NCBI GenBank assembly: GCA_037481695.1
Contig: JBBFLE010000001.1
Span: forward strand, 128,989 to 192,988
Source of the DNA: a bacterium
GTDB lineage: Bacteria; Desulfobacterota; Desulfocorpusculales; Desulfocorpusculum
Direction of reading: 5' to 3'
Length of the DNA stretch: 64,000 nucleotides
Under the pieces are notes generated by a model. That model was given only the letters and a program-made list of their open reading frames with translations, searched no databases and was not told the DNA's origin. How positions within the stretch are numbered: the stretch's first letter is position 1; each line of letters starts with the position of its first letter. The position numbers were made by a program, and so were the translations under genes. Shown piece by piece: positions 20,900 through 37,823 of the stretch.

Positions 20900-21220
20900 G
20901 GCTCGCTCTCTTGGCCTGGCTCAACAGCCAGCTCGGCTACTCAAGCAACCGCGAACTGCTGGAGGACATGAAGCAGGCCGACGAGGGCTTTGACGCTTCC
21001 GGGCGCAGTCACATCTACCATCGGCTCCTCTCGCGCGGCAGCAAGGTGCGAATCCCCCGAGGACCTGGCGCGTTACGATGACAACATCCGCGCGCACCTG
21101 GCGGCCATCAACGCCCGCCGTAGCCAGCCCATCACCCTGCTCTACTTCCAGTACCTGGCCTTCCTCTACACCGAAATCGTCCTTGCACCTAGATTTCATC
21201 TTTCACCGCCACCCAGCTGA
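20900..21220 (+). pseudogene. Frameshifted fragment of an unidentified gene (two adjacent frames: ...WLNSQLGYSSNRELLEDMKQADEGFDASGRSHIYHRLL... / ...DDNIRAHLAAINARRSQPITLLYFQYLAFLYTEIVL)
   Basis: Short ORFs without start or RBS lying between HepT and the DUF499 gene; family not recognised. Confidence 0.25.
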
Positions 21221-24200
21221 AGCTCTTCCTTTACCTTCTTCAGGATCTTGTTGGCCTCCTTAGCCGCCTCCGGCGGTGGGATTGTCTTTCCGTCTCCCAT
21301 CTCAATGCGAACAAAAAATCGGAACGGCGTATTCGCCTTGGCCTTAAGCTTCAGCAGGTCAGGAATAGCATCGCCCAGTTCCTGGATTTCAGAAGGCTCG
21401 AGCTCAGCACTCGCCATCAACACATTGGAAGGGGGTGGGGGTGGGGGCGGAGGCGGGACATCCAGCGGCACCTTGAGCTTTACAGACTGGGCCCCCGGGA
21501 AGTCGCAGGGCCAAGGACCGGATGCCTGGTCCAGCACGAGGAAGCGCGCCTGGAGAGCAGCCGTGATCACATCCCGAACGGTCTTCCACGGGAGCGTCTT
21601 ACCTGCTTTGACGGACAAGGCCGTAGCAACGGAAAGGGCCGAAGCCACACCATCTTTCCAAGCCGCCGGCAGGTTCTCCGGAAGAATCTCCGCAGCAGCG
21701 ATCACGGCTGGCGGCGGGCAGAGTTTCGACGTGGCGTTCAAGACGCCCGCCGGGATCGGCTCGCCCAGGATACTGGCTGGCCCCGAGAGCAGCCACAGCG
21801 CCCCGCTCTCAACGGCAAGGCCGATGGCCTTCTCCACCACTGCCTGCCCGGCCTTCGGAATCCGCATCGGCTCTTGGTAGCCTTCGCGTTCCACCTGCAC
21901 GACGGTCGAACCGCTGAAGTAACGGGTCACTGCGTCAACCGTGATCTCATCGGCAGACCACAGGCCCGGCAAATGTTTGGGTGCCAGGAGTGCAGGGGAA
22001 ATCTCCCCAAGCTCGGCGGCCTCCGGAAGGACGAGCTCAAGCGCCGGATCGTTCATCGCGTTCTCATCCGGCCTGGACATCCACCACGTCCGCACCGAGC
22101 CGTCGGGCCGGGTCAGCCGAAGCACGAAGGTTCCCCCCTCGCACCCGTTTGCAAGCGTGTCAAGGATGGCGCTGGAGCGAAGCATCTTCGGCAGATGCGG
22201 CAACTGCGCAAAGGCACCCGCCAGGTCCTTGACCCGCCGCGAGGTCTCGCCTGAGCGCCAGAGGTTATAAGGGCCATCGGGGAGAAGAGCCTCGGCCGTG
22301 ATGGCGGTATCCTGCACGCGCGACCGCTTATCGCTCTTGATGATGTTGAAGTGCGGGTCCTCCGTGACGGTGATCTTGAAGGCCTGCACTTCATCCTTCT
22401 CCGAGACAGTCACCACGATGCAATACGCCTGTTTGACCGCTTCGGGAATACGGGCTTTGGCCTTCTCGATGTTGATCTGGAGAGTCTCGGCCCGGGCGGG
22501 ATCGACGTTGCCGTCCTTTTGTTGCTTCTTGATCTCCTCGCGCACCTGCTCCCAGCCCAGGTAGTCGCGGGCCCTGGCCATTGCCAGCTCGAGGCCGTCG
22601 CGTGAGGGCACAAGCAGGATCACCGCGTTCCGGTAAACCCTCGGACGATCCGGCCCTGTTGTCTCGTCGATGAATCGCTTCGCCTCGGGGCTGGGCTTTC
22701 CTGATTCCGAAGCGGCGCCCGGACCCAAGACGGCGTAATGGAACGCGCCGTCATCTTCGATGTCCTTGGGCCGTGCGGGGAGCGTGTGGACACGAGCCCC
22801 CGCCGCGGAAGCGTTGGCCGTGAGAGCCTTAGTCTTGCTGATATCGTCCAGGAGTCTTGCCCGGACGACGTCCTCGGGGATATTCTTGGCGGCGATGGCA
22901 TGCATCTGCGTGAGATTGGGTCGGTTGCCCAGCCGCCACGTTGCGGGCAGTTGGCCTTCGGCCACGGCGGCGTAGAGGTCGTCGAGCCAGTAGCTCTCCT
23001 GCGCCCATCGGGCCAAGCCCTTTTGCAGCTCGATCTTGTCAGGCCTGGTAGAACCCAGAAGAACCAGGAGGTCCCGCGTTCTGGCCGTCTGACCGATAGG
23101 CTGGGAGTGAAGAAACGTCGCCACAACGGCCTGCTCTATCTCCCGGAACTTGAGACCGACCGATTCGTCCTGGATCCGTATCGCTTGGGCGAACTCGCTA
23201 TTCAGGATGCCGGTCCAGGCCTGCTTCTTCCCTTCCCACTCCTCGGTGTCGGCGACGGCGACCATCTCACGCAGCGACTCGGACAAGCCCTCGAAGCCGG
23301 GCGGGGAAAGGAACACAGCGGGCCCGATGAGCGGGCTCATGTCCCATTTTTCGGCTTGCCGGAGCGCCAAGGCGAACGTCCGCAGCACCCCGCGGGTTCG
23401 CTGGAACCGAGCGAGCTGCGTCCACTTGGAGTAAAGCACCTCGGTGAGATCGGGGTGGAATGGATAGCTCTTCAGGAACCGCTCCTCCGCCTCCGCACCC
23501 TGCTTGGCCGTCTGCTCGTCGACCCCCTGGATGCCTTTGAGGGCCGCCACCACGTGCTGGCGGAAAGATTCCCGATCCTTGAGCGACTCCGTCGTGAAGA
23601 ACCGTCGGCGCAGTACTTCGGCGATATCCTCCTTGACCACCGGTTCCACCGCTTCTTCGCGTTGCCGCTGGAAGATGTCATAGAGCTCGGCCTGGATCTC
23701 GCGGCCAAGCGTGTCGCTTTTACGCGGGTCTGTCGCCAGGAGCGACGCCACGAGGCAGCAGCGGTCCACCTTGGCCACGGCCTGCGTCAGGTACTGGAAG
23801 AAATTCACGAGCCGGGACCGCCACTCGGGATCCTGGGCGACCTTCTCGCGGGCGTACATCAAGACCTCGTCGACGAGGATCAAGGTCCCAAGCCCGTCCC
23901 TGGCTGGGAGTTCCAGGAGCTCCGCCAGGAGGTTCTCGGCGGGGGCCGAATCGCGTTCTTCCGCCTTGCCGTCGGCGTGCAGAAGCTTGAGTCCTTCATC
24001 GCCCGCGATCTGGTAGGCCAGGATGCTCCAGGGCTGCTTCAGGGTGCGCACCTTTCCCGCGGGGGAAGCGATTTCCATGCCCTTCTCGACGTCCAGCTTG
24101 TCGAAGCACAGCCCCGCCACGCGGCACTTGGGAGGCTTCTGGCCGATGGCCTGGACAAATTCCGCAACGGACGGAAGATTGGGCAGCTTGTCGGGATCGG

Positions 24201-24510
24201 TAACGAGGTGGCGAAGCGTGATCAGGGTATGGGTCTTGCCGCCCCCATAGGTGAGTTCCAACTGGCGGACGGCCTTGTCGTTCTTCCCGGCCAGCCGCAA
24301 AACCACGTCGCGCACGAGCTGGCGCAGGTTGTAGGTCGGGAAGGTAAGGGCGAAAAACTCCTCGGGCTTCTCGTAGATCGGGCGCTTGCCACGCTGCATC
24401 AGGACCTCGTAGAGGTCGGCGGCGAACATATGAAGCGGGAGTTCGCCGGAGCGCAGGTCCTCTCGCAGATTGACCACCTCGTGCCACGGCTTCCAAGGTA
24501 GCTTGGCCAT
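21196..24510 (-). CDS. DUF499 (BrxC/PglY-like) AAA+ ATPase, with a C-terminal poly-Pro linker plus ~80-aa tail
   Basis: MAKLPWKPWHEVVNLREDLRSGELPLHMFAADLYEV... plus TYGGGKTHTLITL P-loop is the canonical DUF499 N-terminus; start taken at the internal ATG 24510 (the ORF extends to 24606). Confidence 0.8.
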   Translation of the reverse strand: MAKLPWKPWHEVVNLREDLRSGELPLHMFAADLYEVLMQRGKRPIYEKPEEFFALTFPTYNLRQLVRDVVLRLAGKNDKAVRQLELTYGGGKTHTLITLRHLVTDPDKLPNLPSVAEFVQAIGQKPPKCRVAGLCFDKLDVEKGMEIASPAGKVRTLKQPWSILAYQIAGDEGLKLLHADGKAEERDSAPAENLLAELLELPARDGLGTLILVDEVLMYAREKVAQDPEWRSRLVNFFQYLTQAVAKVDRCCLVASLLATDPRKSDTLGREIQAELYDIFQRQREEAVEPVVKEDIAEVLRRRFFTTESLKDRESFRQHVVAALKGIQGVDEQTAKQGAEAEERFLKSYPFHPDLTEVLYSKWTQLARFQRTRGVLRTFALALRQAEKWDMSPLIGPAVFLSPPGFEGLSESLREMVAVADTEEWEGKKQAWTGILNSEFAQAIRIQDESVGLKFREIEQAVVATFLHSQPIGQTARTRDLLVLLGSTRPDKIELQKGLARWAQESYWLDDLYAAVAEGQLPATWRLGNRPNLTQMHAIAAKNIPEDVVRARLLDDISKTKALTANASAAGARVHTLPARPKDIEDDGAFHYAVLGPGAASESGKPSPEAKRFIDETTGPDRPRVYRNAVILLVPSRDGLELAMARARDYLGWEQVREEIKKQQKDGNVDPARAETLQINIEKAKARIPEAVKQAYCIVVTVSEKDEVQAFKITVTEDPHFNIIKSDKRSRVQDTAITAEALLPDGPYNLWRSGETSRRVKDLAGAFAQLPHLPKMLRSSAILDTLANGCEGGTFVLRLTRPDGSVRTWWMSRPDENAMNDPALELVLPEAAELGEISPALLAPKHLPGLWSADEITVDAVTRYFSGSTVVQVEREGYQEPMRIPKAGQAVVEKAIGLAVESGALWLLSGPASILGEPIPAGVLNATSKLCPPPAVIAAAEILPENLPAAWKDGVASALSVATALSVKAGKTLPWKTVRDVITAALQARFLVLDQASGPWPCDFPGAQSVKLKVPLDVPPPPPPPPPSNVLMASAELEPSEIQELGDAIPDLLKLKAKANTPFRFFVRIEMGDGKTIPPPEAAKEANKILKKVKEELQLGGGER
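21431..21457. repeat. G-tract GGGGGTGGGGGTGGGGGCGGAGGCGGG (C-strand encodes P9 in the DUF499 protein); potential G-quadruplex / slippage-prone hexamer repeat
   Basis: Read directly from the sequence. Confidence 0.7.
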
Positions 24511-24511
24511 G

Positions 24512-24889
24512 TCAATCCCCCTCTCGATCCGGTTGATATTCCCGAATGCGGTTGCGCTCGACGATCCAGAGCTTGCCTTTGATATCGTTCTGAGCAAGCC
24601 CTTCAATCAACGTACGGCAGCACGCCCAGAGGTCTTGGTCGGTCGGCTTGTGCGGAAGGCGTAAGACGGCGATGCCGCTGTATTCCCAAGGAGGGAAAAG
24701 GAAGGGATTGCTGAAGTCCAGGTCGAGCGTGACTAGACACCTACCCTCTGCCCGACAGGCGGTGATGAGCACGCGATCGCTGGCGGAGCAGAGGTTTTGC
24801 TGCGGAACGGTGGCGACGTCATGGCCCGCGGATCGGAACAGGCGTGCACCCCGTTCACCCAAGTTCTCATCGAGCTTGAGCTTCATCAT
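24512..24889 (-). CDS. DUF5615 (PIN-like, Mut7-C fold) putative toxin
   Basis: MMKLKLDENLGERGARLFRSAGHDVATV...DLDFS pattern typical of DUF5615; start at internal ATG 24889/24886. Confidence 0.65.
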   Translation of the reverse strand: MMKLKLDENLGERGARLFRSAGHDVATVPQQNLCSASDRVLITACRAEGRCLVTLDLDFSNPFLFPPWEYSGIAVLRLPHKPTDQDLWACCRTLIEGLAQNDIKGKLWIVERNRIREYQPDREGD

Positions 24890-25131
24890 TGATTCGCCGC
24901 CGGCAGCTCGACATATCGTTCGCGCGACATTTCGGCCCCATACGCAATGCAAGCTCGGATGTCGTCGTCGTCGATACCAGGGTAATTCTCGCGGATCTGA
25001 TCGAACGTCCAGCCGCTGGCCAGCAAATCCAAGATCAGCGACACCCAGATTCGGTGTCCCCGAATACAGGGCTTGCCGAAGCAAATATTCGGATCGATGG
25101 AGATGCGCTTCAACAGGTCTTCTCGGTTCAT
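24886..25131 (-). CDS. DUF433 putative antitoxin
   Basis: FGKPCIRGHRIWVSLILDLLASGWTFDQIRENYPGIDDDDIRACIAYGAE matches the DUF433 consensus; 4-nt overlaps on both sides. Confidence 0.7.
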   Translation of the reverse strand: MNREDLLKRISIDPNICFGKPCIRGHRIWVSLILDLLASGWTFDQIRENYPGIDDDDIRACIAYGAEMSRERYVELPAANQ

Positions 25132-28100
25132 GGACGATCCTCCTTGTTTGACGGAGTATCGGTGTCGTCGCCAAAAGTCAAGCCCAGCTGGCGATTTTCC
25201 TTCACCGCGCCCCTGGCCTGGACGTGGTTGCTCAGGGATTCGAGCAGGGAGCGCTCTTCGCTTCCGTGGGGCGAAAGCTCGATGAGCGACTGGAGGAGCC
25301 GCTTGAAAAGTTCTTGCCGGCGCAGTCCGTTGCCGTCGAGGTACTCGTCCACCTTGGCAAGATCGCCGGCCTTCCAGAGATGCATCAGGCGGTGCACGCG
25401 GTCGATGAGAGGGATCGGTTTCCCGGCCGGCGCCTCATAGCCAAGTGAACGTCTCTTACGCTGCGCCCACGTCTTGAGCTTCACCTTGCTCCCGGATTCC
25501 TCGAAAGTAGTAGCCGCGTCCTCGCCGCTTTCTTCCTCTTCTATCTCATCATCATCTTCAAGCGACGAGACGTCGCTTCTACTATAGCCGATGATGTCCC
25601 ACGTGTCGGCCAGCTCCTTGTCGGAGAGGCCACACGAGATCGCGTAGAGGATGCACGCGCCCGCCGGGGCTTCCTCGAGGCCGAAGTCGTGACGATGCAG
25701 AAGGTAGTAGGCGGTTGGATCGTCGAGAGTAGACGCGTCGTCTCGACGCGTATCTTCATGTTCGCTTCCACTCAGCACTCGGCCGACCACGAACTCCACG
25801 ACCATCCGCCGCACGTGGGCGAGGAACTCGCTCACCGTCATCAGGCCCGGCTCATTGGCCTTCTTGACCACGGGGTGCTTGCTGTAGGCCTCGAGCGCCG
25901 GACCCGTTGCCGCCCACACGAAGTCCGGCCCACGGATGCCCGCGTCCCAGAATTCGCGGAGCTTGGCGCGGATATTCCGACGCATCTCTTCCAGAACCTG
26001 GTTGTCCCAGCCGGGCTTCGAAAGTAGAAGCGGCGTCCCGCCGCTTTCATCCACGCGACGAGACGTCGCGTCTACGAACGTAGAAGCGGCGTCCTCGCCG
26101 CTTGAGATTACGCGATGAGACGTCGCGTCTACTCGCTTCTTGCAGACCAGCCAAACGGAGGAGGCGAGAGCAGAAGACGCCTTTGCACGCATCCTGGTGT
26201 TCATCTCCGTCTGGATGGGCCAGCTGCCGTCGACGACGAAACCCGATCGAACGAGTGCCGACACGAGGGCTTCCCATGCATCAGGCTGCTTGTTGGCGAA
26301 AACAACAACCATCTTGCCATCCGGTTTCAGTGCGTTCCTGCACGCCTGAAACGCACGCGCCATTCCCTCCTCATAAACGGCCTTCGACTTGGCCTTGTCG
26401 CCTCCGTGACGACTTGCGTCATCGATGAGTTCCCCGTCGTTTCTCTCGTGATTCCACTTGGGCGAAAGGGGGTCTCGAAATGCCCTGTCCAGGTCCAGAG
26501 AAAGACCGTTCAGCGAGCGCTTCAGCCATAGATAGAAAAAATCCATCAGATCCGAGTACGGAATCGCATCGTAGTAGGGCGGGTCCGTCACCACGGCGTC
26601 GTACTGGCCGGAACTGATCTCGAGGGCAGATCGGTTCTCCGCCACGGGCGCCTCGGCATCCGTCGAAGCGAGTAAAGCATGGTCGATACAGAGCGACACC
26701 CAGTTGAGCTGGGCGCAATACGCCGCGCCGACGACATTGATGACTGCCACCTCGGCGAAGTCCCACGTAATCGGCAAAGCGAAGCGAGTAAAGGTATTCC
26801 CGACAAACTCGCCGGAAATAACCCATCGGCAAGTCGTTGAATTGTAGTCTGCAACCTTGTCGTTGAGTATGGCTAGGTAACCTATGACAGCCTCACGCCA
26901 TTCCGACGGATAGCCAAACCGCAACATCTCAGTTGCCGCCTCCCTCGTCCACTTCACGAACGTCCCCAGCGCCAGAAGCTGGCGGGGGGTGAAGAGATCC
27001 CTCCATCGCGTGAAGCCGTAGCCGTCTACGGAAAAAGCTCGGCTTGCTCCGATTCCTCCCCTGGGAGTCGGCTCCACGGGCAACCCGAACGGAATCTGCG
27101 CGAAGAGGTCGGGCAATGCCTTCTCTGCCTGACCCGCTTTCTCTATTTCCTCTCGCTCCGGCAGCCGGTACTCCTTGCCGTCTTGTCCTTCCACGACCAC
27201 GGCGGTCATGACCGAGCCGAGACGCCCGGCCCGACCCTCCAGTCGAATGTCCTCCATCGTCATGATCGTGCCGCAGCAGGGGCACTTGGCGCCAGAGCGC
27301 GACATCGTTCCCGCCCCGAGGCGCTTGTCGTGCTCGCGGCGCTGCGCTGCGTTCCCGCCTTTTACGGGAACGTTTGTCTCGATTCCAAAGACCACAGTAG
27401 ACGCGACGTCCCGTCGCGTTGGGGCGGCACTGTCTTCCGGCTTGCCCTTGGGATTATTCCGAATGTATTGCCTGACTCGTTCCATTTGAGCAGGGCTTCT
27501 AATAATGTGGTCAAAGGATTCTTTCTGCCATACGGTTCCGCTGCGCCCCAGTTTCCTGTTGATCTCGTGCGCCGTGTAGGACTTCCATGAATGAAGGATC
27601 TCGGACAGTTCATGCCCAGCCAGGGGGGTCACCAAAGCATGGACATGGTTGGGCATCACCACATGTTCATCGAGAAGGTAGCGTTCTCCATCAAAGTGCC
27701 GCAGAGCACTTTCGACAAGTGCCTTGATTTCTGGTTTGGCAAGGATGCATTCGCCGTAACCGGCGTCTAGCCATTCCTGAAAACGTTGGGGAAAAAGTTG
27801 ATAATACTCGCGACGTGTCTTTTCGTCGTGAGGTTCAGGATGTTTCTCCTGCCACGCCTTGCGTTCCTCTTCCCATTGCAGCAACTTCTCTTGAGGCATG
27901 GAATCTGCTAGACGGAAGGTCACGAAATAGGTTGCACCGTCCTGGCGCCAATGGGGAAGGTTGCCGGAAAGGTTGCCAATGGGGGCTTCAGGATCGAAGT
28001 AATGCAGAAGCGCCGTCTCGACGCTTCTCGCACGCGGCGAGGACGCCGCGTCTACTATTACTTGCATCGTGAGGAGCACGCGCTTTTTTTCCTTCTTGCA

Positions 28101-29138
28101 CAGCCAGCGGGTCTTGAGGAGCGGGATCGTCGCGCGGCAGTTCTTGCAGGTCACCGTGCGCGCCCAGAGGTAGGCGACCGTCGGCTTCGCCACCCATCGG
28201 GGATTGCGTTTGTCTGCCAGGTACTCCGCGCTGAACTGGGCATTCAGCCGGTCAATGTCCGGCTTCCCATCTTCCTTGAGGGGAACCAGGCGCGTGGGCT
28301 GCTTCTCGTAAGGTAGACGCGACGTCCCGTCGCATAGAAAGCGGCGGGACGCCACTTCTACCGGCTCGAACTCGGCGTAGGTCGGGTAGAACCTGGCAAG
28401 TTCCCGTCGGGCGCGGTCGAGAACCCACTGGCCCCACGCTCGGACGTGCCAGGCGAGGTCTGCTTCCAAAGGAGACGCGACGTCCCGTTGCATGGCCTGT
28501 TTAAAAAGCGACAAGACGTCGCTTCTACACCGCGGGTGCGCCTTGTAAAAGGCCTTCATGAACTCCTCGTTCTCGAGGATGAAGTCCGGCAGAGGATGGG
28601 TCTTCCCGGCCAGCTTCTGCGGATATTCGAGCGTGCATTTGAGGATGAACCAGGCGACCGGGTTGATGTCCACGGCCGTCACCTCGCACCCGAGGCGCAT
28701 GGCCTCCAGCGGGATCGCACCGCCGCCCGCGAAGGGGTCCAGCACTTTGGGTGGGCGCCCTCCGTAGGCCTTGCGGATCTCCTGCCGGAACCACTCCAGC
28801 AGCTCCTTGTTCTCGGTCTCCCGGCCCCAGTGCAGAATGCCTCCCTCGGTGGCTTCCTTCTCACGCTCGACGACCCGCCCGCCGGGCATCTTCTTGCGCT
28901 CGATCTTTTTCACTACTTTGCCACCGATTTTCTCGCAGAGCTTCTGGCGTGCTTCGGGCGTTCCGGGATCAGGCAGGAGCGTGGCGATGAGGGCGGCCCG
29001 GCACGCGGCCAGCGGCCGCCGCGCTGGCCAGATGTGGAGCGTCGAGATGTGCCCATGCCGCACGTTCTTCTCGTGGACGGAGTCCAGAGAAGCCTGCTTC
29101 AGCGGGAAGGCATGCTCGATCAGGCGAGATTTGTCCAT
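25128..29138 (-). CDS. DUF1156-family N6-adenine DNA methyltransferase (1336 aa) carrying an in-frame Y1/RAYT transposase domain and multiple in-frame REP-derived segments
   Basis: Canonical DUF1156 N-terminus (EHAFPLKQASL...HIWPARRPLAACRAAL); FxGxG motif (VLDPFAGGGAIP); Zn-ribbon KCPCCGT; catalytic DPPYYD motif; AGGA RBS 6 nt before ATG 29138. Confidence 0.85.
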   Translation of the reverse strand: MDKSRLIEHAFPLKQASLDSVHEKNVRHGHISTLHIWPARRPLAACRAALIATLLPDPGTPEARQKLCEKIGGKVVKKIERKKMPGGRVVEREKEATEGGILHWGRETENKELLEWFRQEIRKAYGGRPPKVLDPFAGGGAIPLEAMRLGCEVTAVDINPVAWFILKCTLEYPQKLAGKTHPLPDFILENEEFMKAFYKAHPRCRSDVLSLFKQAMQRDVASPLEADLAWHVRAWGQWVLDRARRELARFYPTYAEFEPVEVASRRFLCDGTSRLPYEKQPTRLVPLKEDGKPDIDRLNAQFSAEYLADKRNPRWVAKPTVAYLWARTVTCKNCRATIPLLKTRWLCKKEKKRVLLTMQVIVDAASSPRARSVETALLHYFDPEAPIGNLSGNLPHWRQDGATYFVTFRLADSMPQEKLLQWEEERKAWQEKHPEPHDEKTRREYYQLFPQRFQEWLDAGYGECILAKPEIKALVESALRHFDGERYLLDEHVVMPNHVHALVTPLAGHELSEILHSWKSYTAHEINRKLGRSGTVWQKESFDHIIRSPAQMERVRQYIRNNPKGKPEDSAAPTRRDVASTVVFGIETNVPVKGGNAAQRREHDKRLGAGTMSRSGAKCPCCGTIMTMEDIRLEGRAGRLGSVMTAVVVEGQDGKEYRLPEREEIEKAGQAEKALPDLFAQIPFGLPVEPTPRGGIGASRAFSVDGYGFTRWRDLFTPRQLLALGTFVKWTREAATEMLRFGYPSEWREAVIGYLAILNDKVADYNSTTCRWVISGEFVGNTFTRFALPITWDFAEVAVINVVGAAYCAQLNWVSLCIDHALLASTDAEAPVAENRSALEISSGQYDAVVTDPPYYDAIPYSDLMDFFYLWLKRSLNGLSLDLDRAFRDPLSPKWNHERNDGELIDDASRHGGDKAKSKAVYEEGMARAFQACRNALKPDGKMVVVFANKQPDAWEALVSALVRSGFVVDGSWPIQTEMNTRMRAKASSALASSVWLVCKKRVDATSHRVISSGEDAASTFVDATSRRVDESGGTPLLLSKPGWDNQVLEEMRRNIRAKLREFWDAGIRGPDFVWAATGPALEAYSKHPVVKKANEPGLMTVSEFLAHVRRMVVEFVVGRVLSGSEHEDTRRDDASTLDDPTAYYLLHRHDFGLEEAPAGACILYAISCGLSDKELADTWDIIGYSRSDVSSLEDDDEIEEEESGEDAATTFEESGSKVKLKTWAQRKRRSLGYEAPAGKPIPLIDRVHRLMHLWKAGDLAKVDEYLDGNGLRRQELFKRLLQSLIELSPHGSEERSLLESLSNHVQARGAVKENRQLGLTFGDDTDTPSNKEDRP
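25509..25583. repeat. REP doublet (REPIN-like) with expanded acidic spacer, in frame in the methyltransferase (encodes SRSDVSSLEDDDEIEEEESGEDAATTF)
   Basis: GTAGTAGCCGCGtccTCGCCGCT ... AGCGACGagaCGTCGCTTCTAC. Confidence 0.6.
25729..25751. repeat. Solo REP hairpin GTAG-ACGCGTCG-tct-CGACGCGT (encodes TRRDDAST)
   Basis: Perfect 8-bp stem preceded by GTAG. Confidence 0.65.
26024..26132. repeat. Two tandem REP doublets (REPINs, 52-53 bp each, period 56 bp): GTAGAAGCGGCG-tcc-CGCCGCTT/spacer/ACGCGA(C/T)G-aga-CGTCGCGTCTAC; in frame, encodes VDATSHRVISSGEDAASTFVDATSRRVDESGG
   Basis: Read directly; the two REPs in each doublet are inverted (GTAG ... CTAC). Confidence 0.75.
27397..27419. repeat. REP hairpin GTAG-ACGCGACG-tcc-CGTCGCGT immediately 3' of the RAYT domain (encodes TRRDVAST)
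   Basis: Read directly; orientation inverted relative to the REP on the other side of the RAYT. Confidence 0.7.
27425..27965 (-). mobile_element. IS200-like Y1 transposase / REP-associated tyrosine transposase (RAYT) domain, embedded in frame in the methyltransferase
   Basis: LPHWRQDGATYFVTFRL..., HuH motif MPNHVHALV, ...GTVWQKESFDHIIRS..., RQYIRNNP (catalytic Tyr region); no own start codon; flanked by inverted REPs at 28005-28055 and 27397-27419. Confidence 0.75.
28005..28055. repeat. Degenerate REP plus REP (CGCGGCG-agga-CGCCGCG-TCTAC) immediately 5' of the RAYT domain (encodes IVDAASSPRARSVETALL)
   Basis: Read directly. Confidence 0.6.
28313..28362. repeat. REP doublet GTAGACGCGACG-tcc-CGTCGCA/tagaa/AGCGGCG-gga-CGCCACTTCTAC in the N-terminal half of the methyltransferase
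   Basis: Read directly. Confidence 0.6.
28471..28528. repeat. Degenerate REP doublet (GGAGACGCGACG-tcc-CGTTGCA ... AGCGAC-aag-ACGTCGCTTCTAC) in the N-terminal half of the methyltransferase
   Basis: Read directly. Confidence 0.5.
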
Positions 29139-29162: not shown

Positions 29163-29663
29163 TTAGGGTCTGCCGTCCACTTCAGACATCCTGATGGCAT
29201 CGTGTCCTATAGGGAACACATATGCTGCCGCGTGCCAATCTCTATTGGGATCGCCGCCCATCAGCAGAAGTACCGGTTCGGGACACCTCATCGCATTATT
29301 GGTGGCAAATGACTTCATTTGTTCATGGTCTATTTCGCTAGGGATAGGGGCGGCCAAAGGATGGTAATGCCACTCGCCAAGGTAATACTGTTTCCGACGC
29401 CAGAGACGGTTCAAGAACGCCTGGAGACCTCGCACGCCGCGGTTGAAAAATACTCTGCCTCGTCTGGAATCTGCCGGAGGTCCAGACACATCGGTTACGA
29501 TAGCCCAATCGTGCTTGTCAGTATAGTAACCAACGAGAATTCCCCCTGTCTCCATATGCCTTGATGCCTTACAGAATGCGATTATCTTGTCCATTGTCAT
29601 TCCTTGCACAGACAGTCCAAACCGCGCATCAGGCGTTCTAAACTCAAGGGTTCTCATGTTCAT
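29163..29663 (-). CDS. cap3: CBASS Cap3-like JAB/JAMM isopeptidase
   Basis: E...HYHPLAAPIPSEID = HxH-x7-S-x2-D JAMM motif; 166 aa; directly downstream of the E1/E2 gene. Confidence 0.75.
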   Translation of the reverse strand: MNMRTLEFRTPDARFGLSVQGMTMDKIIAFCKASRHMETGGILVGYYTDKHDWAIVTDVSGPPADSRRGRVFFNRGVRGLQAFLNRLWRRKQYYLGEWHYHPLAAPIPSEIDHEQMKSFATNNAMRCPEPVLLLMGGDPNRDWHAAAYVFPIGHDAIRMSEVDGRP

Positions 29664-29665
29664 TA

Positions 29666-31555
29666 CTATTGGACCAATTTGATTCCCGGTGGGAACTCAT
29701 CCTTCTGCTCCTGTTCAAACACGCACAATCGAGGAGAACGTGGAGGATTAGTCATCCATGAATCAATGCATTTCACGGCGATGGAACTCAACAACCAGAT
29801 ATCATCCGAGCGAGCGGGAAAGACGGGGTGCCAGCATCCGAGCCCTTCGGGGGGCAACTCGAATCCCTTGTGCTCTTTCAACTCTTTGTCGAGCCACGGG
29901 GTCAGCATGGCCGAGAAATCATGATGGGGGAACCTCTCGCCACATGCCCCGAATAAAAATAACCGTCGGGCTTGAAGACCTGTCGAGATACTCACAAACA
30001 GTTTGTTGCCCTCCCAAGGAAAGGTGCTCAATCGGAAAGCAGCACGGTCATCACCAGTACAGTCGATGACGATAGTGCACTCCGCCATTTTCCGTTGCTC
30101 AACCTCAGTGGTGTTGTGCACGTATCGTCTGACCCCCTCGGCGGTAACGTGAGGAGAGATGCTGTTCAATCGGGCCGCCAACGACTCTGCTTTTGGTGTC
30201 TGTATCTCTTGGATGGAGAGCGTGTGACGACACAAGTTGCCCACTTCAAGGATGTCTCCGTCTACCACAACTATTCTCTGACAGCCTTCGCGAACGAGTA
30301 TCTCAGCCACCGAGGATCCTATAGCCCCAGCGCCAACTATCAGAACCTTGGCACCCGTTAGTGAAGATGATGCTCGGCCTCTTGTCCGTATCTGTTGCTC
30401 CGACCAGTTCCTTGAGATGATCCAGTCAATGCTGCTGCTATCCGAAAGAACGGTACGGGCGTCGTTCATTGCGAAGTTTCCCTCCTTGGGGCGAAAGCCT
30501 TTCACCTTGCCATGTGTAAGCACAGGCAGCTGGAGTGCCTGCCAGTGGTACATCGCGGGTTCGCCCCCAATGGTAGTTGGTATGGGGAAGCCGACAAGTA
30601 GAATGTGCCGTTTGCCGTCACGAAAGTCTCGAGCAAGGTCGAAGAACAGAGGATTGAAGTCAACGCCCTGTTCCTTCATTGCTGCTCGCAGTTCGCCGAA
30701 GGTTGCGGGGGCTTGCCAAGGGTGGATCACCGGTATACGAGGTAGGCGGATCCACATCGCGGAGAGTTTGCGCGCAGTCCCATGCCTTAACAAGGCTCCG
30801 TACTCCACTTCCCGAATGGTTTTTCCTCGTGCATTTGAGAAGGTGGTGACGGCATACCACGCGTTGACGCCATCAGGTTGAACCACGGTGGCAACCCCAC
30901 ATACCTCGACCGTCTCTTCCTGCCAGAACCGAAAGGAGTCCTCGTCTTCGATGAAGCCTAGTGTAGTGTGTGATCGTCGCGGAAAGTCTGGCAATTCGAA
31001 CGGTTCGCCCACCTCGGCTACTCGACCTGCTGCCGCAGCCTCTAACCACTCCTTAGCTCGCATTACGTGCCACCGCAACCGCTCTTCAGGCGAGGTGGGT
31101 TCGATATCGTAGGCCCGCCGCCCCGCGTAGCGCAGCGATGTCCGGACGCATATCTTCCCCTCTCGCCACGGGACATCAGGATTCCCCTCAGCGTTGTGTG
31201 ACTGATGGGGAAATGTGTGTTTGATCCCCCCGTCTTTGGCAGGATACAGTTCAATATCGCCCCATGGATAGTCGTCATCTGCAACGATGAACCACACCGA
31301 CTTGGCAGGAATGAGACCGGCAGGCTTTACCGTCAAACGACATCGCAGCGCCCATTTCTTGAATAGCTCATTCCACACCCAGTCTTCCAACAGTTCGCAG
31401 AAAGGGAGTCCATCCAGCGCTCGTCGTGCTCGCAACAAACTATCTGGTGGTTGGAATTTCATATTGTCAAGCAAAGCGTCCGCCTCCGATGATGGAGACA
31501 TTCTTCCTTGGCGTATACCCACCCGGCTTGTCGGGCGACTCACCGTTACCGTCAT
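29666..31555 (-). CDS. cap2: CBASS Cap2-like E2/E1 fusion (ubiquitin-conjugation-like)
   Basis: C-terminal ThiF/E1 Rossmann KVLIVGAGAIGSSVAEIL...VVVDGDILEVGNLCRH; N-terminal E2-like half; start ambiguous (ATG 31555, 31501 or 31462; the ORF runs to TTG 31591), overlapping the CD-NTase 3' end. Confidence 0.7.
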   Translation of the reverse strand: MTVTVSRPTSRVGIRQGRMSPSSEADALLDNMKFQPPDSLLRARRALDGLPFCELLEDWVWNELFKKWALRCRLTVKPAGLIPAKSVWFIVADDDYPWGDIELYPAKDGGIKHTFPHQSHNAEGNPDVPWREGKICVRTSLRYAGRRAYDIEPTSPEERLRWHVMRAKEWLEAAAAGRVAEVGEPFELPDFPRRSHTTLGFIEDEDSFRFWQEETVEVCGVATVVQPDGVNAWYAVTTFSNARGKTIREVEYGALLRHGTARKLSAMWIRLPRIPVIHPWQAPATFGELRAAMKEQGVDFNPLFFDLARDFRDGKRHILLVGFPIPTTIGGEPAMYHWQALQLPVLTHGKVKGFRPKEGNFAMNDARTVLSDSSSIDWIISRNWSEQQIRTRGRASSSLTGAKVLIVGAGAIGSSVAEILVREGCQRIVVVDGDILEVGNLCRHTLSIQEIQTPKAESLAARLNSISPHVTAEGVRRYVHNTTEVEQRKMAECTIVIDCTGDDRAAFRLSTFPWEGNKLFVSISTGLQARRLFLFGACGERFPHHDFSAMLTPWLDKELKEHKGFELPPEGLGCWHPVFPARSDDIWLLSSIAVKCIDSWMTNPPRSPRLCVFEQEQKDEFPPGIKLVQ

Positions 31556-32603
31556 CCTTCTTTGCCGGTGGGTCCGGGAACCGGTCACCAAAGAGCTGTC
31601 GCCACAGAATCACGCTCTCGTGCAGGTCTTCTTCGTTGTATGCTCGGCGGGCTAACTCGGCTGCCTCCGTGATGTGCTCGTGGAAGGCGACGAAGTCATC
31701 GGGAGACACTCGCCCTAATACATTGTGCTCTGGAACACCATGGTCAGGAACCCTTGGTGTTCGTTTCTGCTCAACATCTGTGCGGTATACGTCGCGAATG
31801 CCTTCGAGGGCTGAGACCACACCAGCGGCGACGGATTGAATACCATCCGCGCAGTTTATGCAGCAAAGGTGCTCTAGGGGATAGCTCTTGGGGTACTTTG
31901 GCTCCCGGCGTTGCGTGGTTCGCCACCATTTCAGGCACTTCACAACGTCGAGGTAGTAGCCATTGCATGCTGCATTCTTTCTTTGCGTTGCTTCAATCTG
32001 AGCCAATGGATGTGTCTTGTGCCATTCCTGTGCTTCTCGGTCAGGAATCCAGAGGGGCTCGTTTCGCCATTGTTCATCCCCCGCCTTCTCCAATATCGCG
32101 CCTAGCGATTTGCCAGACCGCCACGACAGGCTGAGCCTCCAGTCACGAGCTTCTTCCAGTGTTTGGTCGGTTGAGACGCTCGCAGACTTGACGAGCTGTT
32201 TCAGCGCCTCGCTAGGTGCGGATGTCGGCACGAGGTCCAGTTGGACATAAGATAGTTCAATGCCCCACGAGCGGCCTTGCGGCTTGTACTTGCCCTTGTA
32301 GTGCTTCTCCAAGAAGGGCCTGAAGCGTTCCAAGGCCTCACGAGGTGTGATCTTGTTTCGGTCGAGATTCGTTACGATGATAATGTCGACATCGGATTTC
32401 CTCCGGTCTTCGAACGGTCTGATCGCCGTGGAGCGCCTATAGCTGCCCTGAAGGAAGGTCGCCACAACGATGTCCTTCAAATCTTCGTCCTTGAGGAGCC
32501 GGTCCCTGAGTGTGCTGTGCCCGTTCTTACAATCCTGGACTTGGCTCTCCGTGATCCTGATGTTCCTCAAGAAATCGATGAAGTACGATGGTACATTACT
32601 CAT
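31467..32603 (-). CDS. CD-NTase (cGAS/DncV-like nucleotidyltransferase) of a type II CBASS
   Basis: GSYRRSTAIRPFEDRRKSDVDIIIV (GS...[DE]h[DE] NTase active-site motif); 378 aa; C-terminus ...IIGGGRFA; ATGA start/stop overlap with the effector gene. Confidence 0.75.
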   Translation of the reverse strand: MSNVPSYFIDFLRNIRITESQVQDCKNGHSTLRDRLLKDEDLKDIVVATFLQGSYRRSTAIRPFEDRRKSDVDIIIVTNLDRNKITPREALERFRPFLEKHYKGKYKPQGRSWGIELSYVQLDLVPTSAPSEALKQLVKSASVSTDQTLEEARDWRLSLSWRSGKSLGAILEKAGDEQWRNEPLWIPDREAQEWHKTHPLAQIEATQRKNAACNGYYLDVVKCLKWWRTTQRREPKYPKSYPLEHLCCINCADGIQSVAAGVVSALEGIRDVYRTDVEQKRTPRVPDHGVPEHNVLGRVSPDDFVAFHEHITEAAELARRAYNEEDLHESVILWRQLFGDRFPDPPAKKDDGNGESPDKPGGYTPRKNVSIIGGGRFA

Positions 32604-34171
32604 TCCATGTCCCCCTTATGTTTTCCACGCGTTCCAAAACTCGAGCCGCAACTAATAGGGACGCTGATAGACTGATAATATGCAGCACCGCCTGCATCGA
32701 GATCATGCTCGTACAGCACCAGCTTGCCGAGAACGTGCGCCAACCGCCCAAGCAGGAACATTATGCCGTTGGGGGCCGCGAAGAACACGTGCAATACGCC
32801 GCCTTGTCCGCCGCACAACTCCCTGACGGTGGCAACGAGACACTCGGCCAAGAGATGGGCATGAGTTCCATCCTTAACCGATGAGGGGCCTGCAGACGGG
32901 AGGAGGAAGTGAACGATGCTCCCGGCTGTCTTGACGTTCAGTCTCACGTACTTCAAGACGTCCTTCTCGATGTTATGTGTGGCGCTGATTGCAAGGACCG
33001 TATCCGTGGTGTTCGCCGGTTCCAGTTTGATAACGCTCACATCCCATTTCGGGTAGTGTTTCTCGATTTCGGGCGAAACGTGTGCTTTTCTCCATATATG
33101 CCGCCCTGCAAGGCTGTCCTGCACGGGCACGATGTCCACGCCAGATTTTGGGTTCAGCGCCCATCCCGCAATGAATGCGATGCTACCGTGCGTCTGGAGG
33201 CGGATATGGAATGAGCGCGAAGGCTTCACATTCACATCGAGAAAGCGAATCACCGCAGGGGCTATGATCTCATTCCACGTATTGGGTACTCTTGGAAACC
33301 GCCCGTTGAAATGGCGAAGCAGGCAGAGTGTCGCGTCGGTTTCGTCTTCAAGGTTCTCGGCATACCGCCAGAAGCTGCGGATGCCGATCCTTGTGGCATC
33401 AGGCTCTTCAATCGCCCGCCCCGCCCAGAGAGCACATTCGCGGGAGAGTTTTTCAAGGGAATCTCTTGTAAGAACTCTGTCTCCTCTTTCAATTAGTTTT
33501 CGCCCAAGATCATCGTACGGGTTTATGGGGTTGCCCGGCTGGACCGGAACGAGCCCTACCAAACGGAGGCGAAGATTTAGGTCTTCGCCCAATTTTTCCA
33601 ATGTCGGCCCCTGATGCACGCGAACAAGGCGCAGCAAACGCTGCAGTTCCTCGTCTGACCGGAGGCCTAAATGTCTCTTCCACGCCTCACGCACTTTCCC
33701 CATCCTCGACTTAGGGCCGCCTCGAGACAACACATCCCATCGCAGGCTTCCGTCGGTCAGGCTGTGAAATGCGCCCATCTCGTTGTCGGGATGGACCTGC
33801 CACGGTGAAAAGATGTTGAACCGACAGTTACAGCCTTTTGATGCGCATTTGCGTTGCGCGTTCAAAAGTCGTTGCAGAATGGATACTGAGTTGGCGTTCA
33901 CAAACGAGGGATCCATCATGTTTTGCCATGTGAAGGCCCCGTTGCTTTTAACGTGAAACTTGACTTGGTAGAAATCTGCGTGAATGGACTCACCCGCATC
34001 GGAATAGCCGCTATAACGGACCACCACGTCGTCCAGAGATTTTGCCTCATCGCTCTCAATCTCCACGCTTACAACTTTCGTCTTGTCCTCGAGCAGACGG
34101 CATGCCTGCAACCAGAAGAAACGTATCTGATAGTCGTCGCCCTGAAGCCGTGCTGCAACTGCTCTAGCCAT
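32600..34171 (-). CDS. cap4: Cap4-like CBASS effector: N-terminal DUF4297/REase-fold nuclease plus C-terminal SAVED domain
   Basis: Start at MARAVAARLQGDDYQIRFFW (GGAGG upstream; 2-nt gap after the helicase stop); D...QVK nuclease motif; C-terminus ...LHVFFAAPNGIMFLLGRL typical of SAVED. Confidence 0.6.
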   Translation of the reverse strand: MARAVAARLQGDDYQIRFFWLQACRLLEDKTKVVSVEIESDEAKSLDDVVVRYSGYSDAGESIHADFYQVKFHVKSNGAFTWQNMMDPSFVNANSVSILQRLLNAQRKCASKGCNCRFNIFSPWQVHPDNEMGAFHSLTDGSLRWDVLSRGGPKSRMGKVREAWKRHLGLRSDEELQRLLRLVRVHQGPTLEKLGEDLNLRLRLVGLVPVQPGNPINPYDDLGRKLIERGDRVLTRDSLEKLSRECALWAGRAIEEPDATRIGIRSFWRYAENLEDETDATLCLLRHFNGRFPRVPNTWNEIIAPAVIRFLDVNVKPSRSFHIRLQTHGSIAFIAGWALNPKSGVDIVPVQDSLAGRHIWRKAHVSPEIEKHYPKWDVSVIKLEPANTTDTVLAISATHNIEKDVLKYVRLNVKTAGSIVHFLLPSAGPSSVKDGTHAHLLAECLVATVRELCGGQGGVLHVFFAAPNGIMFLLGRLAHVLGKLVLYEHDLDAGGAAYYQSISVPISCGSSFGTRGKHKGDME

Positions 34172-34173
34172 AT

Positions 34174-37100: not shown

Positions 37101-37791
37101 CCCTGGGGCTGGAGAGCGTGTCCAAGCTGACGATGATCCGGTCGCTGTCATCGCCTTTGAACGGGTTGTCGTTACGGGCGTCTGATCCGCTCACGATTCG
37201 GAAGACCAGGTTGAAAAGCGTCGCCAGTTCATGCCGCCAGTTTCCGACTAGCCCCGCCGGGGTGACGATCAGGACTCGACGCAGGAGCCGTCGGGAGAGC
37301 ATCTCGCGGAGGTAGAGCCCGGTCATGATCGTCTTCCCCGCGCCGGCATCGTCGGCCAAGAGGAAGCGGAGCCGGGCTTGCTTGAGCATGTGCTCGTAGA
37401 CGGCGATGCGCTGGTGAGGCAGCGGATCGATGCAGGAGATCTCGGTGGCAAAGGCGGGATTCATGAGGTGGCCGAAGGAAAGCCGTTCACCCTCGGCCAG
37501 CACCTTCACAATCTCGGGCGGGGCGGTGAAGTCCAGTATCGGTGGTGCGCCCCCGTAGGAGTGTTGCTCCGGCTCGGCGACCTTGCTTCGAGTGTCCAGT
37601 TCCGCCTCCAGCTGTCGTAGGCGGGCCCAGCAGATTTTCGATGGCTTGACCTTGCCGTTCTCCCAACGATTTACGGTAGGAAATGATACGCCGACCGCCT
37701 CAGCGAGCGCGACCTGGGTCAGTCCTAAGCGTGCCCGCAAGGCTTTTATCCTGCGAGGGTAATCGTCTCCTGGCGTTGAAGTCATAGCCAT
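34174..37791 (-). CDS. XRE-family HTH fused to SNF2/COG0553 helicase with C-terminal DUF3883-like domain
   Basis: LGLTQVALAEAVGVSFPTVNRWENG HTH; DDAGAGKT (motif I), VVFDEAHKL (II), LLLTATP (III), QRMGRIHRYLQ (VI); C-terminal EVKGRAGTGDIEVSANEW...YWLYVV; start at MAMTST. Confidence 0.8.
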   Translation of the reverse strand: MAMTSTPGDDYPRRIKALRARLGLTQVALAEAVGVSFPTVNRWENGKVKPSKICWARLRQLEAELDTRSKVAEPEQHSYGGAPPILDFTAPPEIVKVLAEGERLSFGHLMNPAFATEISCIDPLPHQRIAVYEHMLKQARLRFLLADDAGAGKTIMTGLYLREMLSRRLLRRVLIVTPAGLVGNWRHELATLFNLVFRIVSGSDARNDNPFKGDDSDRIIVSLDTLSSPRVFARLKEPDVIPYDLVVFDEAHKLSADRGNDMRVRKTDRYCLAEALAGVRDLDDQWSLGWCAHHLLLLTATPHMGKDYPYYALWRLLEPDVLSTPEAFNEFPAEHRASHFIRRTKEEMVYLDGRPLFPKRISDTLGYELSQGPISEQTLYDETTDYLRFVYNKAKLLNREAARLAMGVFQRRLASSTWALLRSFERRIEKLEGLIEAVQDGELNVEQLVTLQQRIHETDDVLDNKTADDESPAEGREENELAEDKLLQGVVAASLADLLAEREQVQKLLALARQVYDLGQESKFEKLREILTDPKFGDEKFIVFTEHRDTLDFLVKRLIGMGYTGQVAQIHGGMHFTQREEEVERFRKASHEGGARFLVCTDAAGEGINLQFCWIMINYDVPWNPARLEQRMGRIHRYLQKHDPVIILNLVAPSTREGRVLKTLLDKMEKIRKELNSDKVFDCIGRIFQGVSIRKYMELAVIEDPDEVARELDGRLTKEQLEALAARERSLYGSGGDVARQLPRLRENLEREVYFRLLPGYVRQYIEQAAPLLGLEIEGDPGGVFSLRPKRTGAMDPLLSALEFYPEKSREKLTVSRPTDPKEVIWLHPGEPVFERFRALISERLADAGQRGAVFVDPMTDRPYLFHMALLSVIRKPDAELTELTEEETLECRLVGLRQYDDADVALCPVEHLLLLKGGHGLPPAAQRLAVEAGKMKEQAKAFLLEQVARQMALERRKRLLDTLPERESFLRRGFDFREAELAAARTRHAEKARKGNRKAMDALEEVKRQQRQLAQRRSNALAVLRREPELVAPGPITFVAHALVVPSSDPRDIKEHDINVELAAMRIARAFEEAAGAKVLDVHTPELARAAGLPENPGFDLLSIRSVDATSRRVTSSGEDAPSTFEKRAIEVKGRAGTGDIEVSANEWARACNMRQDYWLYVVYDCATSNPRLVRVQDPFGSLLARAKGSVLISARQIMEAEES
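34418..34470. repeat. REP doublet (REPIN) in frame in the helicase, between the helicase core and the DUF3883-like domain (encodes SVDATSRRVTSSGEDAPSTF)
   Basis: GTAGAAGGGGCG-tcct-CGCCGCTT/gaagtt/ACGCGACG-aga-CGTCGCGTCTAC; same family as the copies in the methyltransferase. Confidence 0.75.
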
Positions 37792-37823
37792 GGTATTCTC
37801 ATCGCCGAGTGACAATATAAAAA

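Follow-up and report, generated by a model that had tools for sequence, protein, structure and literature searches.

Repetitive extragenic palindromes (REPs) headed by a GTAG tetranucleotide have been described within bacterial genes. These in-frame GTAG REPs, single or dimeric, encode ~8 to 30 residues (20 to 30 in the case of dimers), are most numerous in Opitutus terrae, a member of the Planctomycetes-Verrucomicrobia-Chlamydiae (PVC) group, often lie in DNA-processing genes, including those for helicases and N-6 DNA methylase, and were proposed to occupy loops or linkers (Di Nocera, De Gregorio and Rocco 2013, BMC Genomics 14:522; PMC3733652). Here, we analyzed a 64,000-nucleotide stretch of a Desulfocorpusculum genome (assembly GCA_037481695.1, contig JBBFLE010000001.1, positions 128,989 to 192,988 of the forward strand; hereafter, the window) in which REPs and inverted REP doublets (REPINs) lie in frame in hmaB, the methyltransferase gene of an Hma defence locus, together with a REP-associated tyrosine transposase (RAYT) that is translated as part of the same protein. 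We read this arrangement, with a probability of roughly 60%, as the in-frame persistence of a REPtron, along with its REPINs, at permissive loops encoded by defence genes that are horizontally mobile. REPs in frame are already known, whereas the embedded RAYT and the operon-confined repeats in defence genes seem to be new. The intragenic REPs reported in 2013 are isolated members of genome-wide families; the words "fused" and "fusion" are absent from that text, as is "transposase" from its table of intragenic REPs (PMC3733652). In contrast, 13 units and a RAYT share one gene here, the repeats do not extend beyond two genes of a single operon and are conserved at orthologous sites across genomes, and both the peptides and the REP sequences differ from those of the O. 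terrae families.

The locus shares with REPtrons and REPIN-RAYT systems (Nunvar 2010; Bertels & Rainey 2011; Ton-Hoang 2012) a Y1 transposase of the histidine-hydrophobe-histidine (HUH) type flanked by cognate GTAG hairpins, inverted doublets separated by a spacer, a usually single RAYT copy, and joint inheritance of RAYT and repeats over the long term. RAYTs known so far occur as separate genes within intergenic clusters of REPs, with REPINs dispersed extragenically, whereas the RAYT of the window lacks its own start and stop codons and every repeat is coding. Fusions are not mentioned in a 2017 RAYT survey, and a 2018 family survey set aside long proteins as "gene fusions or annotation errors" (PMC6006769). 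Likewise, a 2026 survey of Hma and related bacteriophage exclusion (BREX) systems mentions no RAYT, HUH, or transposase domain in the methyltransferase (PMC12839542). Within its incomplete coverage, our literature search retrieved no account of a host protein with a RAYT translated as part of it, nor of a REP population restricted to the genes of a single operon and conserved there.

Two further classes of in-frame insert invite comparison. Rickettsia palindromic elements (RPEs), an older analogue to which the elements had been likened in a first-pass annotation of the window, are palindromic mobile repeats that occur in frame in many genes and are translated as an extra peptide; the resemblance is apt as an analogy of outcome but does not extend to membership. 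RPE-1 is longer than the units found here. By their published description, RPEs are set apart as a different sequence family with a different host range, and RPE-4 and RPE-6 have been equated with CGTC-type REPs (PMC3733652), for which no dedicated transposase is known, whereas the units of the window are GTAG headed. Inteins and homing endonucleases are likewise nuclease-encoding selfish inserts in frame, which preserve host function and are patchily distributed among alleles. Unlike inteins, however, the insert described here stays in the protein (Pfam detected no Hint or splicing domain in HmaB), and the nuclease is a HUH Y1 enzyme with DNA hairpin ends. An IS200/IS605 insertion sequence was also considered and rejected; the window contains one Y1 segment, the host open reading frame (ORF) is uninterrupted, and the scanned products next to hmaB gave no match to a transposase family.

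The features on which the analysis bears are as follows (aa, amino acids of the encoded protein).

25128–29138, minus strand: hmaB, encoding a DUF1156 N6-adenine DNA methyltransferase of 1336 aa that carries the RAYT and seven REP sites
27441–28013, minus strand: RAYT (Y1 HUH tyrosine transposase) domain, HmaB aa 376–566, Pfam Y1_Tnp
28470–28529, minus strand: site 1, degenerate doublet with one GGAG head, encoding CRSDVLSLFKQAMQRDVASP (aa 204–223)
28314–28361, minus strand: site 2, REP doublet (REPIN), encoding VEVASRRFLCDGTSRL (aa 260–275)
28005–28055, minus strand: site 3, REP doublet with one degenerate head (GCAG), 5′ boundary of the RAYT, encoding VDAASSPRARSVETALL (aa 362–378)
27396–27419, minus strand: site 4, single REP, 3′ boundary of the RAYT, encoding TRRDVAST (aa 574–581)
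26022–26132, minus strand: site 5, tandem REPINs (26079–26132 and 26022–26075, 56 nt start to start), aa 1003–1039
25728–25751, minus strand: site 6, single REP, encoding TRRDDAST (aa 1130–1137)
25506–25582, minus strand: site 7, two units around an acidic spacer, encoding RSDVSSLEDDDEIEEEESGEDAATT (aa 1187–1211)
34174–37815, minus strand: hmaA, encoding a helix-turn-helix (HTH)-SNF2 helicase with a C-terminal NOV_C domain (Pfam; PADLOC HmaA, E-value 1.2e-152)
34417–34470, minus strand: site 8, REPIN in frame within the NOV_C domain of hmaA, encoding VDATSRRVTSSGEDAPST (aa 1116–1133)
21196–24606, minus strand: hmaC, encoding a DUF499 AAA+ ATPase, the third component (Pfam DUF499; PADLOC HmaC, E-value 3.4e-72)

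Each unit consists of a GTAG head, an 8-bp stem, a loop of 3 to 5 nt, and the complementary stem. The head motif GTAGAMGCGRCG (≤1 mismatch) matches the window 14 times, against a mean of 0.39 and a maximum of 2 in shuffled sequences; 12 matches fall in hmaB, 2 in hmaA (one doublet, 34418–34470), and none elsewhere in the window. Thirteen window units fit the GTAG/8-bp-stem anatomy with ≤1 mismatch in head plus stem, nine of them with no deviation from GTAG in the head and full pairing along a stem of 7 or 8 bp, and all GTAG-headed perfect hairpins of the window are within hmaA or hmaB. The coding sequence holds 15 of 15 window units, none of which breaks the reading frame. Inverted doublets of 48 to 53 nt, each composed of one A-type and one B-type arm, occupy sites 2, 3, 5a, 5b, and 8; that of site 2 folds into a single long hairpin. 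Folded as single-stranded DNA, the elements reach z-scores of −3.1 to −5.1 relative to shuffles (−3.25 and −5.07 for the REPINs of site 5), with the exception of the degenerate element at 28467–28532 (z-score of −1.7). No Rfam family was identified at gathering thresholds across 20–39 kb. By their palindromic structure, repetition, doublet organization, and cognate RAYT, the elements are GTAG-type REPs and REP doublets, although they depart from the extragenic location of that class in that all window units are coding.

Motif and hairpin inspection recovered all seven sites noted in the first-pass annotation, whose core claim of GTAG-type REP/REPIN-like elements in frame in a methyltransferase gene with a RAYT domain holds. 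That list lacked an eighth site, the in-frame doublet in hmaA. The REPIN of site 8 matches the hmaB REPIN at 26080–26132 at 49 of 53 positions, loop and spacer included, a likeness that points to recent copying across 8 kb.

hmaB is a single uninterrupted ORF of 1336 codons enclosing the seven noted sites. Its product carries methyltransferase motifs I (FAGGGAIPLE, aa 136–145) and IV (DPPY, aa 852–855), matches the PADLOC HmaB model (E-value 6e-110), and in a Pfam scan hits DUF1156 (E-value 1.2e-17) along with Y1_Tnp and methyltransferase families. An identical protein (P0001) is recorded in a metagenome-assembled genome (MAG) at NCBI and in a Logan assembly. A PDB sequence search with full HmaB gave no match. 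The RAYT, which had been described as present in cis, is more than nearby: it is translated in frame as an internal domain of a protein free of stops from aa 1 to 1336, and is thus no stand-alone gene. It scores 32.1 bits against PF01797 (Y1_Tnp; cutoff of 23) and contains the HUH motif NHVHALV (aa 497–503; 27630–27650) and the tyrosine motif SWKSYTAHEIN (aa 517–527; 27558–27590). Across 45 sequences, H169, H171, and S191 show no variation and W189 and K190 almost none, with Y or F at the catalytic tyrosine position in the aligned homologues. REPs abut both ends of the RAYT in seven of seven aligned loci.

In an AlphaFold (AF2) model of aa 330–620, the RAYT core reaches predicted local distance difference test (pLDDT) values of 84 to 98, whereas the REP-encoded flanks (aa 359–374 and 567–584) stay below 50; the linkers around the RAYT are thus predicted to be disordered. 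The top Foldseek match of this model is 4ER8_A (E-value 1.3e-5, probability 1.00), an Escherichia coli RAYT in complex with a REP hairpin, and next come ISDra2, IS608, and IS200 TnpA; the TM-scores are modest (0.34/0.57) because the model includes host flanks. The closest relatives of the RAYT are stand-alone proteins of ~190 to 250 aa, 60 to 70% identical and some of them named RayT by the sources, from Kiritimatiellia, Hydrogenedentota, Planctomycetota, and Verrucomicrobiota. Seven stand-alone RAYTs (P0129, P0136, P0153, P0154, P0194, P0213, and P0236) bear the Joint Genome Institute (JGI) name "type I restriction enzyme R subunit." An HsdR-RAYT fusion suspected from these names was discarded, P0129 being an ordinary stand-alone RAYT gene of 223 aa, and the name looks like a propagated misannotation.

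Comparison with homologues identifies the elements as insertions. Among 119 listed HmaB homologues (the identical P0001 left out), 20 combine Y1_Tnp with DUF1156 and measure ~1270 to 1420 aa, whereas the 99 without Y1_Tnp are mostly ~1040 to 1140 aa long (one has 1211 aa). The RAYT-less proteins that were aligned are devoid of every REP-derived peptide, and it is on this ground that we regard the elements as inserted; a comparison with element-free methyltransferases had been proposed at first pass. An ancestral loop, EPNA(D/E)KTG, at the RAYT insertion point is missing from all RAYT-bearing alleles. The claim of in-frame insertion stands as far as the frame is concerned, but it is not a matter of simple addition throughout: sites 1, 6, and 7 substitute for host loop residues of similar length, site 1 taking the place of a longer host loop, whereas site 5 brings a net gain of 34 aa. 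A full-length model was made for the RAYT-less orthologue P0019 (mean pLDDT of 60.6, a moderate value), the RAYT segment of the window having been modeled separately. All seven hmaB sites fall in predicted (DSSP) coil of this REP-free protein, the first-pass annotation having asked whether the inserts lie in surface loops. The RAYT insertion point is the turn of a predicted β-hairpin (strands 359–367 and 374–380, pLDDT of ~80), site 2 lies in a long coil, site 6 in coil, and site 7 in a long acidic loop that is predicted to be disordered.

The protein is under selection, and the hairpins are subject to selection or homogenisation. Since synonymous sites are saturated and dN/dS was mostly not computable, pN and pS were used instead. 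Among the seven RAYT-bearing alleles, pS is 0.5 to 0.9 (saturated), and pN of the RAYT is 0.05 to 0.20, similar to that of the methyltransferase core; in the variable central part (aa 700–850), pN reaches 0.40 to 0.48. Where computable, dN/dS of the flanking segments is 0.02 to 0.19. The long ORF is intact and under purifying selection in ~20 metagenomic homologues, and its reading as one gene is thereby upheld. At identical amino acids, third codon positions are 83% identical in REP codons versus 39.5% elsewhere, the former figure being inflated by the way in which units were defined. When units were located by the 5′ arm alone, pairing of ≥7/8 was observed in 65 of 87 inside hmaA/hmaB versus 1 of 34 outside. 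At the two stem positions that are polymorphic, a complementary change accompanies 33 of 42 and 39 of 44 changes. The pairing test and the compensated changes therefore indicate that the hairpin is kept as nucleic acid within coding sequence.

The first-pass annotation had attributed one shared peptide motif to all copies. Instead, the 59 units of seven hmaB genes fall into four orientation/frame classes, with counts of 18, 12, 10, and 19. The four peptide types are VDATSRRV, (G/S)RSDVSSL, SGGTPLL, and TRRDVAST/SGEDAAST. None of the 59 is read in the TAG-containing frame, in agreement with the earlier statement that no copy introduces a stop. The open poly-arginine frame ending in VY is not used by any of the 59 either; avoidance of this frame is only suggestive, because many of the units are orthologous.

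A codon alignment of the window with the hmaB loci of six homologues, whose differing flank genes mark them as different genomes, places most sites at shared positions, so that insertion in this genome may apply to the window-specific sites 1, 5, and 8 but not to the majority, which are common to homologues of other genomes. The site 3 position holds a doublet in seven of seven aligned RAYT-bearing loci, and the site 4 position holds one to four units among the aligned homologues. At site 2, the window, L001, L002, and L004 carry a REPIN, whereas L005 to L007 have none; the window copy is of opposite polarity to the other three. Site 6, as a single REP or a doublet, is common to L001, L002, L004, L007, and P0018, and site 7 is common to L001, L002, and L004 and partly to L007. 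Sites 1, 5, and 8 are found only in the window among the sequences aligned; type-1 REPINs occur at site 5 only in the window among the aligned homologues, and site 8 is empty in hmaA of L001, L002, L004, L005, L006, and L129. The hmaB gene of L002 (P0003, with a type-1 RAYT) carries a further palindromic family in frame near aa 700 and aa 1030, encoding GQASLP... and TGTEACPTI, one of which is at the loop of the window's site 5.

We sought a single RAYT-bearing clade, but neighbour-joining trees, which carry no support values, show RAYT-bearing alleles scattered among RAYT-less ones in every region. This scatter may reflect recombination or repeated insertion. The near-identical pair P0018 and P0059 differs by the RAYT and a REPIN. 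In the N-terminal third and the immediate flanks, RAYT-bearing alleles resemble one another slightly more (+0.02 to 0.03, permutation P of ~0.002), which is not so in the variable central and catalytic parts. A few origins followed by recombination between alleles fits the loss of the ancestral loop and the N-terminal likeness; repeated insertion at the same permissive sites may also have occurred. The idea that REPs act as a shuffling cassette around the variable central region was dropped as unsupported in general, since it applies only to the window and L002 (sites 4 and 5).

Seven loci spanning ~192 kb (≤10 kb of flank per locus, and the 64 kb of the window) contain 62 hairpin units, 61 of which lie in hmaA/hmaB and 1 in the hmaB-hmaC spacer of L005. 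No units occur in the inter-hma cargo genes or flanks of these seven loci, and hmaC (~1100 aa) is free of ≤1-mismatch heads and hairpins in the window and of REP units in L002, L004 to L007, and L128. hmaC adjoins hmaB and equals hmaA in size, yet it is REP free.

Beyond these loci, the REP family was found in at least 120 stretches when one genome per species was scanned. The matches listed come from Planctomycetota, Verrucomicrobiota, Kiritimatiellia, Lentisphaerae, Hydrogenedentota, Nitrospirota, and others, often from several contigs per MAG; none of the matching stretches listed contains hmaB, and the source MAG is not among the matches listed. Two of the stretches listed hold ordinary stand-alone RAYTs flanked by REPs. 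Also among the matches listed, the same REPs lie in frame in genes for an RHS protein, ThiC, pyruvate carboxylase, a Type ISP enzyme, and two Eco57I-type methyltransferases. The family is thus one of ordinary dispersed REPs with stand-alone RAYTs in many PVC, Hydrogenedentota, and Nitrospirota genomes. A 44-aa tandem REP peptide, too short a query for a survey, returned three matches from a representative library of 1.84 billion proteins, namely, one HmaA NOV_C fragment and two STAND-WD40 proteins of doubtful relevance.

Similar architectures have arisen with other RAYTs and, several times, in an unrelated methyltransferase family. Site 2 holds a different RAYT in P0015 and in P0073 (the latter clusters with P0048 and P0056), and site 3 a third, shorter RAYT in P0018 and P0020. 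The P0073 locus, L128 from Lentisphaeria, has a GTGG-headed REP family with 14 units, all of them in hmaA/hmaB and none in 13 kb of other sequence (0.05 expected by chance); in its hmaA, a unit of this unrelated family sits at exactly the position of the window's site 8. L128 also contains, between hmaA and a kinase gene, a 157-nt direct repeat (6973–7129 and 8231–8387, 86% identical) and, among small ORFs at 7145–8227, five copies of a separate palindromic repeat, CCACGGCATGCCGTGG. On the Nitrospirota contig L058, an unrelated Eco57I-type methyltransferase (P0244) includes a RAYT 67.5% identical to that of the window and at least six in-frame REP sites, and the neighbouring SNF2 helicase gene has more. 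Downstream of this methyltransferase gene, ~7 extragenic REP units are found at 756–987, the last six ~33 nt apart on one strand. Besides P0244, 6 of 119 other listed homologues of the Eco57I-type family contain Y1_Tnp in frame, at two or more positions and with different RAYT subtypes, and in one database fragment an HsdS domain is fused to a RAYT.

With hmaA upstream and hmaC downstream of hmaB, and with products that match the helicase-nuclease, methyltransferase, and ATPase components, the locus is, on sequence grounds, an Hma system (HmaABC); Hma has also been classed as a type-1 DUF499-centred BREX-related system (PMC12839542). The hmaA ORF of 1213 codons is listed from a TTG, and the first Met of its translation is residue 9. 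In the window, a complete type II operon of the cyclic oligonucleotide-based antiphage signaling system (CBASS; 29163–34348, minus strand; Pfam) is nested between hmaA and hmaB, encoding Prok-JAB, E1-like ThiF, SMODS cyclase, and SAVED-domain effector products. The SAVED-effector ORF (32600–34348) overlaps that of hmaA by 175 nt (34174–34348), and the true start of the effector is probably downstream of the first listed ATG. In other loci, the hmaA-hmaB slot holds genes for SLFN_AlbA_2 and HATPase_c_4, CbiA/ParA-like, AAA_14-DUF4143, or kinase proteins. A DUF433/DUF5615 (PIN-like) gene pair, probably a toxin-antitoxin, lies between hmaB and hmaC in the window (24512–25174, minus strand) and in L007 (8305–8935); in L130, the pair is at 5008–5627. 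Directly upstream of hmaA in L002/L003 (2041–3872), a gene for an AAA_15/AAA_21 ATPase precedes one for a DUF4276 protein. This pair, which we take to resemble PARIS, points to a defence island.

According to the preferred reading, a REPtron sits within hmaB and its transposase would be made only as an internal domain of HmaB, tethered by short REP-encoded linkers into a surface β-hairpin turn. The fused RAYT would bind and nick GTAG hairpins on single-stranded DNA and may occasionally copy, flip, or re-insert REPINs near its own gene. Selection on the defence system would remove copies unless their length is a multiple of three, and the surviving copies would also avoid TAG and poly-arginine frames and occupy permissive loops. 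The package would be inherited with the hma genes, which recombine among alleles and move between genomes, and the element would persist as a low-cost passenger on a mobile defence operon, not spreading through the host chromosome. The anatomy of the elements, their conservation, the purifying selection, the maintenance of the hairpins, their loop location, and their recurrence are matters of observation, as is their confinement in the DNA examined; that the element is a passenger and not a working part of the defence system is what we infer from them. Several points weigh against this reading. Local insertion followed by a filter leaves the REP-free state of hmaC, cargo genes, and spacers (save that between hmaB and hmaC in L005) unexplained, and confinement is gauged against flanks of limited length. 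Catalytic activity of the RAYT and its action in cis are presumed. The scatter of RAYT-bearing alleles, the inflated REP-codon figure, and the moderate confidence of the P0019 model count on the same side, and the recurrent tie to defence methyltransferases of two unrelated families means that the domain could serve the host.

This last point leads to the main rival, an exapted domain, in which the RAYT and the in-gene hairpins would now be a working part of the defence system, e.g., as a single-stranded DNA nuclease directed at invading or replicating DNA, a hairpin-based regulator in the DNA or mRNA of the gene, or a homing-like, nick-stimulated driver of hma allele conversion. The strong purifying selection on the RAYT, with HUH and tyrosine motifs intact while synonymous sites are saturated, the recurrence in two unrelated families together with the HsdS-RAYT fragment, and the restriction of repeats to hmaA/hmaB to the exclusion of hmaC and cargo all argue for it; the patchy RAYT-bearing alleles, slightly more alike near the insert and not in the presumed target-recognition region, are compatible with recombinational spread. 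Nevertheless, the domain is dispensable, as most hmaB and Eco57I-type homologues do without it, different RAYT subtypes at different positions look opportunistic, the same REP family occurs in frame in ThiC, pyruvate carboxylase, and RHS protein genes, and stand-alone RAYTs are comparably conserved. The alleles are also mosaic, and the closest relatives of the window are RAYT-less in every region, which suggests recombination independent of the RAYT. We therefore judge exaptation to be unlikely, though worth keeping in view, and its more specific form, a functional cis-acting module of the defence operon working by homing-like nicking and gene conversion or as an added single-stranded DNA nuclease, to be rather improbable. 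If true, such a module would be a new way of integrating a HUH transposase into a host protein, arising repeatedly in defence methyltransferases.

An inactive relic, i.e., an old REPtron and a few REPIN insertions frozen as tolerated linkers and domain with no transposition now, would account for the sharing of most sites by descent among alleles, the degenerate heads or stems (GGAG at 28471, GCAG at 28004, and the unit at 25507), and the failure of the repeats to spread into the surrounding genome. It is nonetheless a doubtful explanation, because protein-level constraint does not predict the synonymous conservation of REP codons or the compensatory stem changes, and the window-specific REPINs 92% identical across 8 kb, the polymorphism in presence/absence, copy number, and polarity, and the conserved catalytic motifs of the RAYT also count against it. 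Finally, hmaB could be no single gene at all but a pseudogene, an assembly chimera, or a set of small genes split by extragenic REPs, given that DNA of 55 to 64% GC content, such as this, yields many long spurious ORFs. This can hardly be the case: the same uninterrupted architecture recurs in ~20 independent homologues from different assemblies and contexts, purifying selection on the flanking segments is strong, the stop frame is not used by any unit, and methyltransferase motifs are present on both sides of the inserts. Moreover, the frame is kept at eight of eight sites, for which unconstrained independent events would give (1/3)^8, or ~1.5e-4.

In the prevailing view, RAYT-REPIN systems comprise a single-copy gene that is inherited vertically and repeats that are extragenic, and to our knowledge the way in which RAYTs move REPINs has never been directly shown. 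With a transposase made only within a large host protein and repeats within a few kilobases of coding DNA, the hma locus would provide a compact system that suits tests of RAYT action in cis, of the strand and sites that are cut, and of the origin of new REPINs. The finding also accounts for the extra ~250 residues and the "transposase" domain by which some HmaB, BREX-related, and Eco57I-type methyltransferases differ from their relatives. More broadly, the locus would be an example of a mobile element that persists without harm to its host gene by riding a defence operon that recombines and is transferred between phyla.

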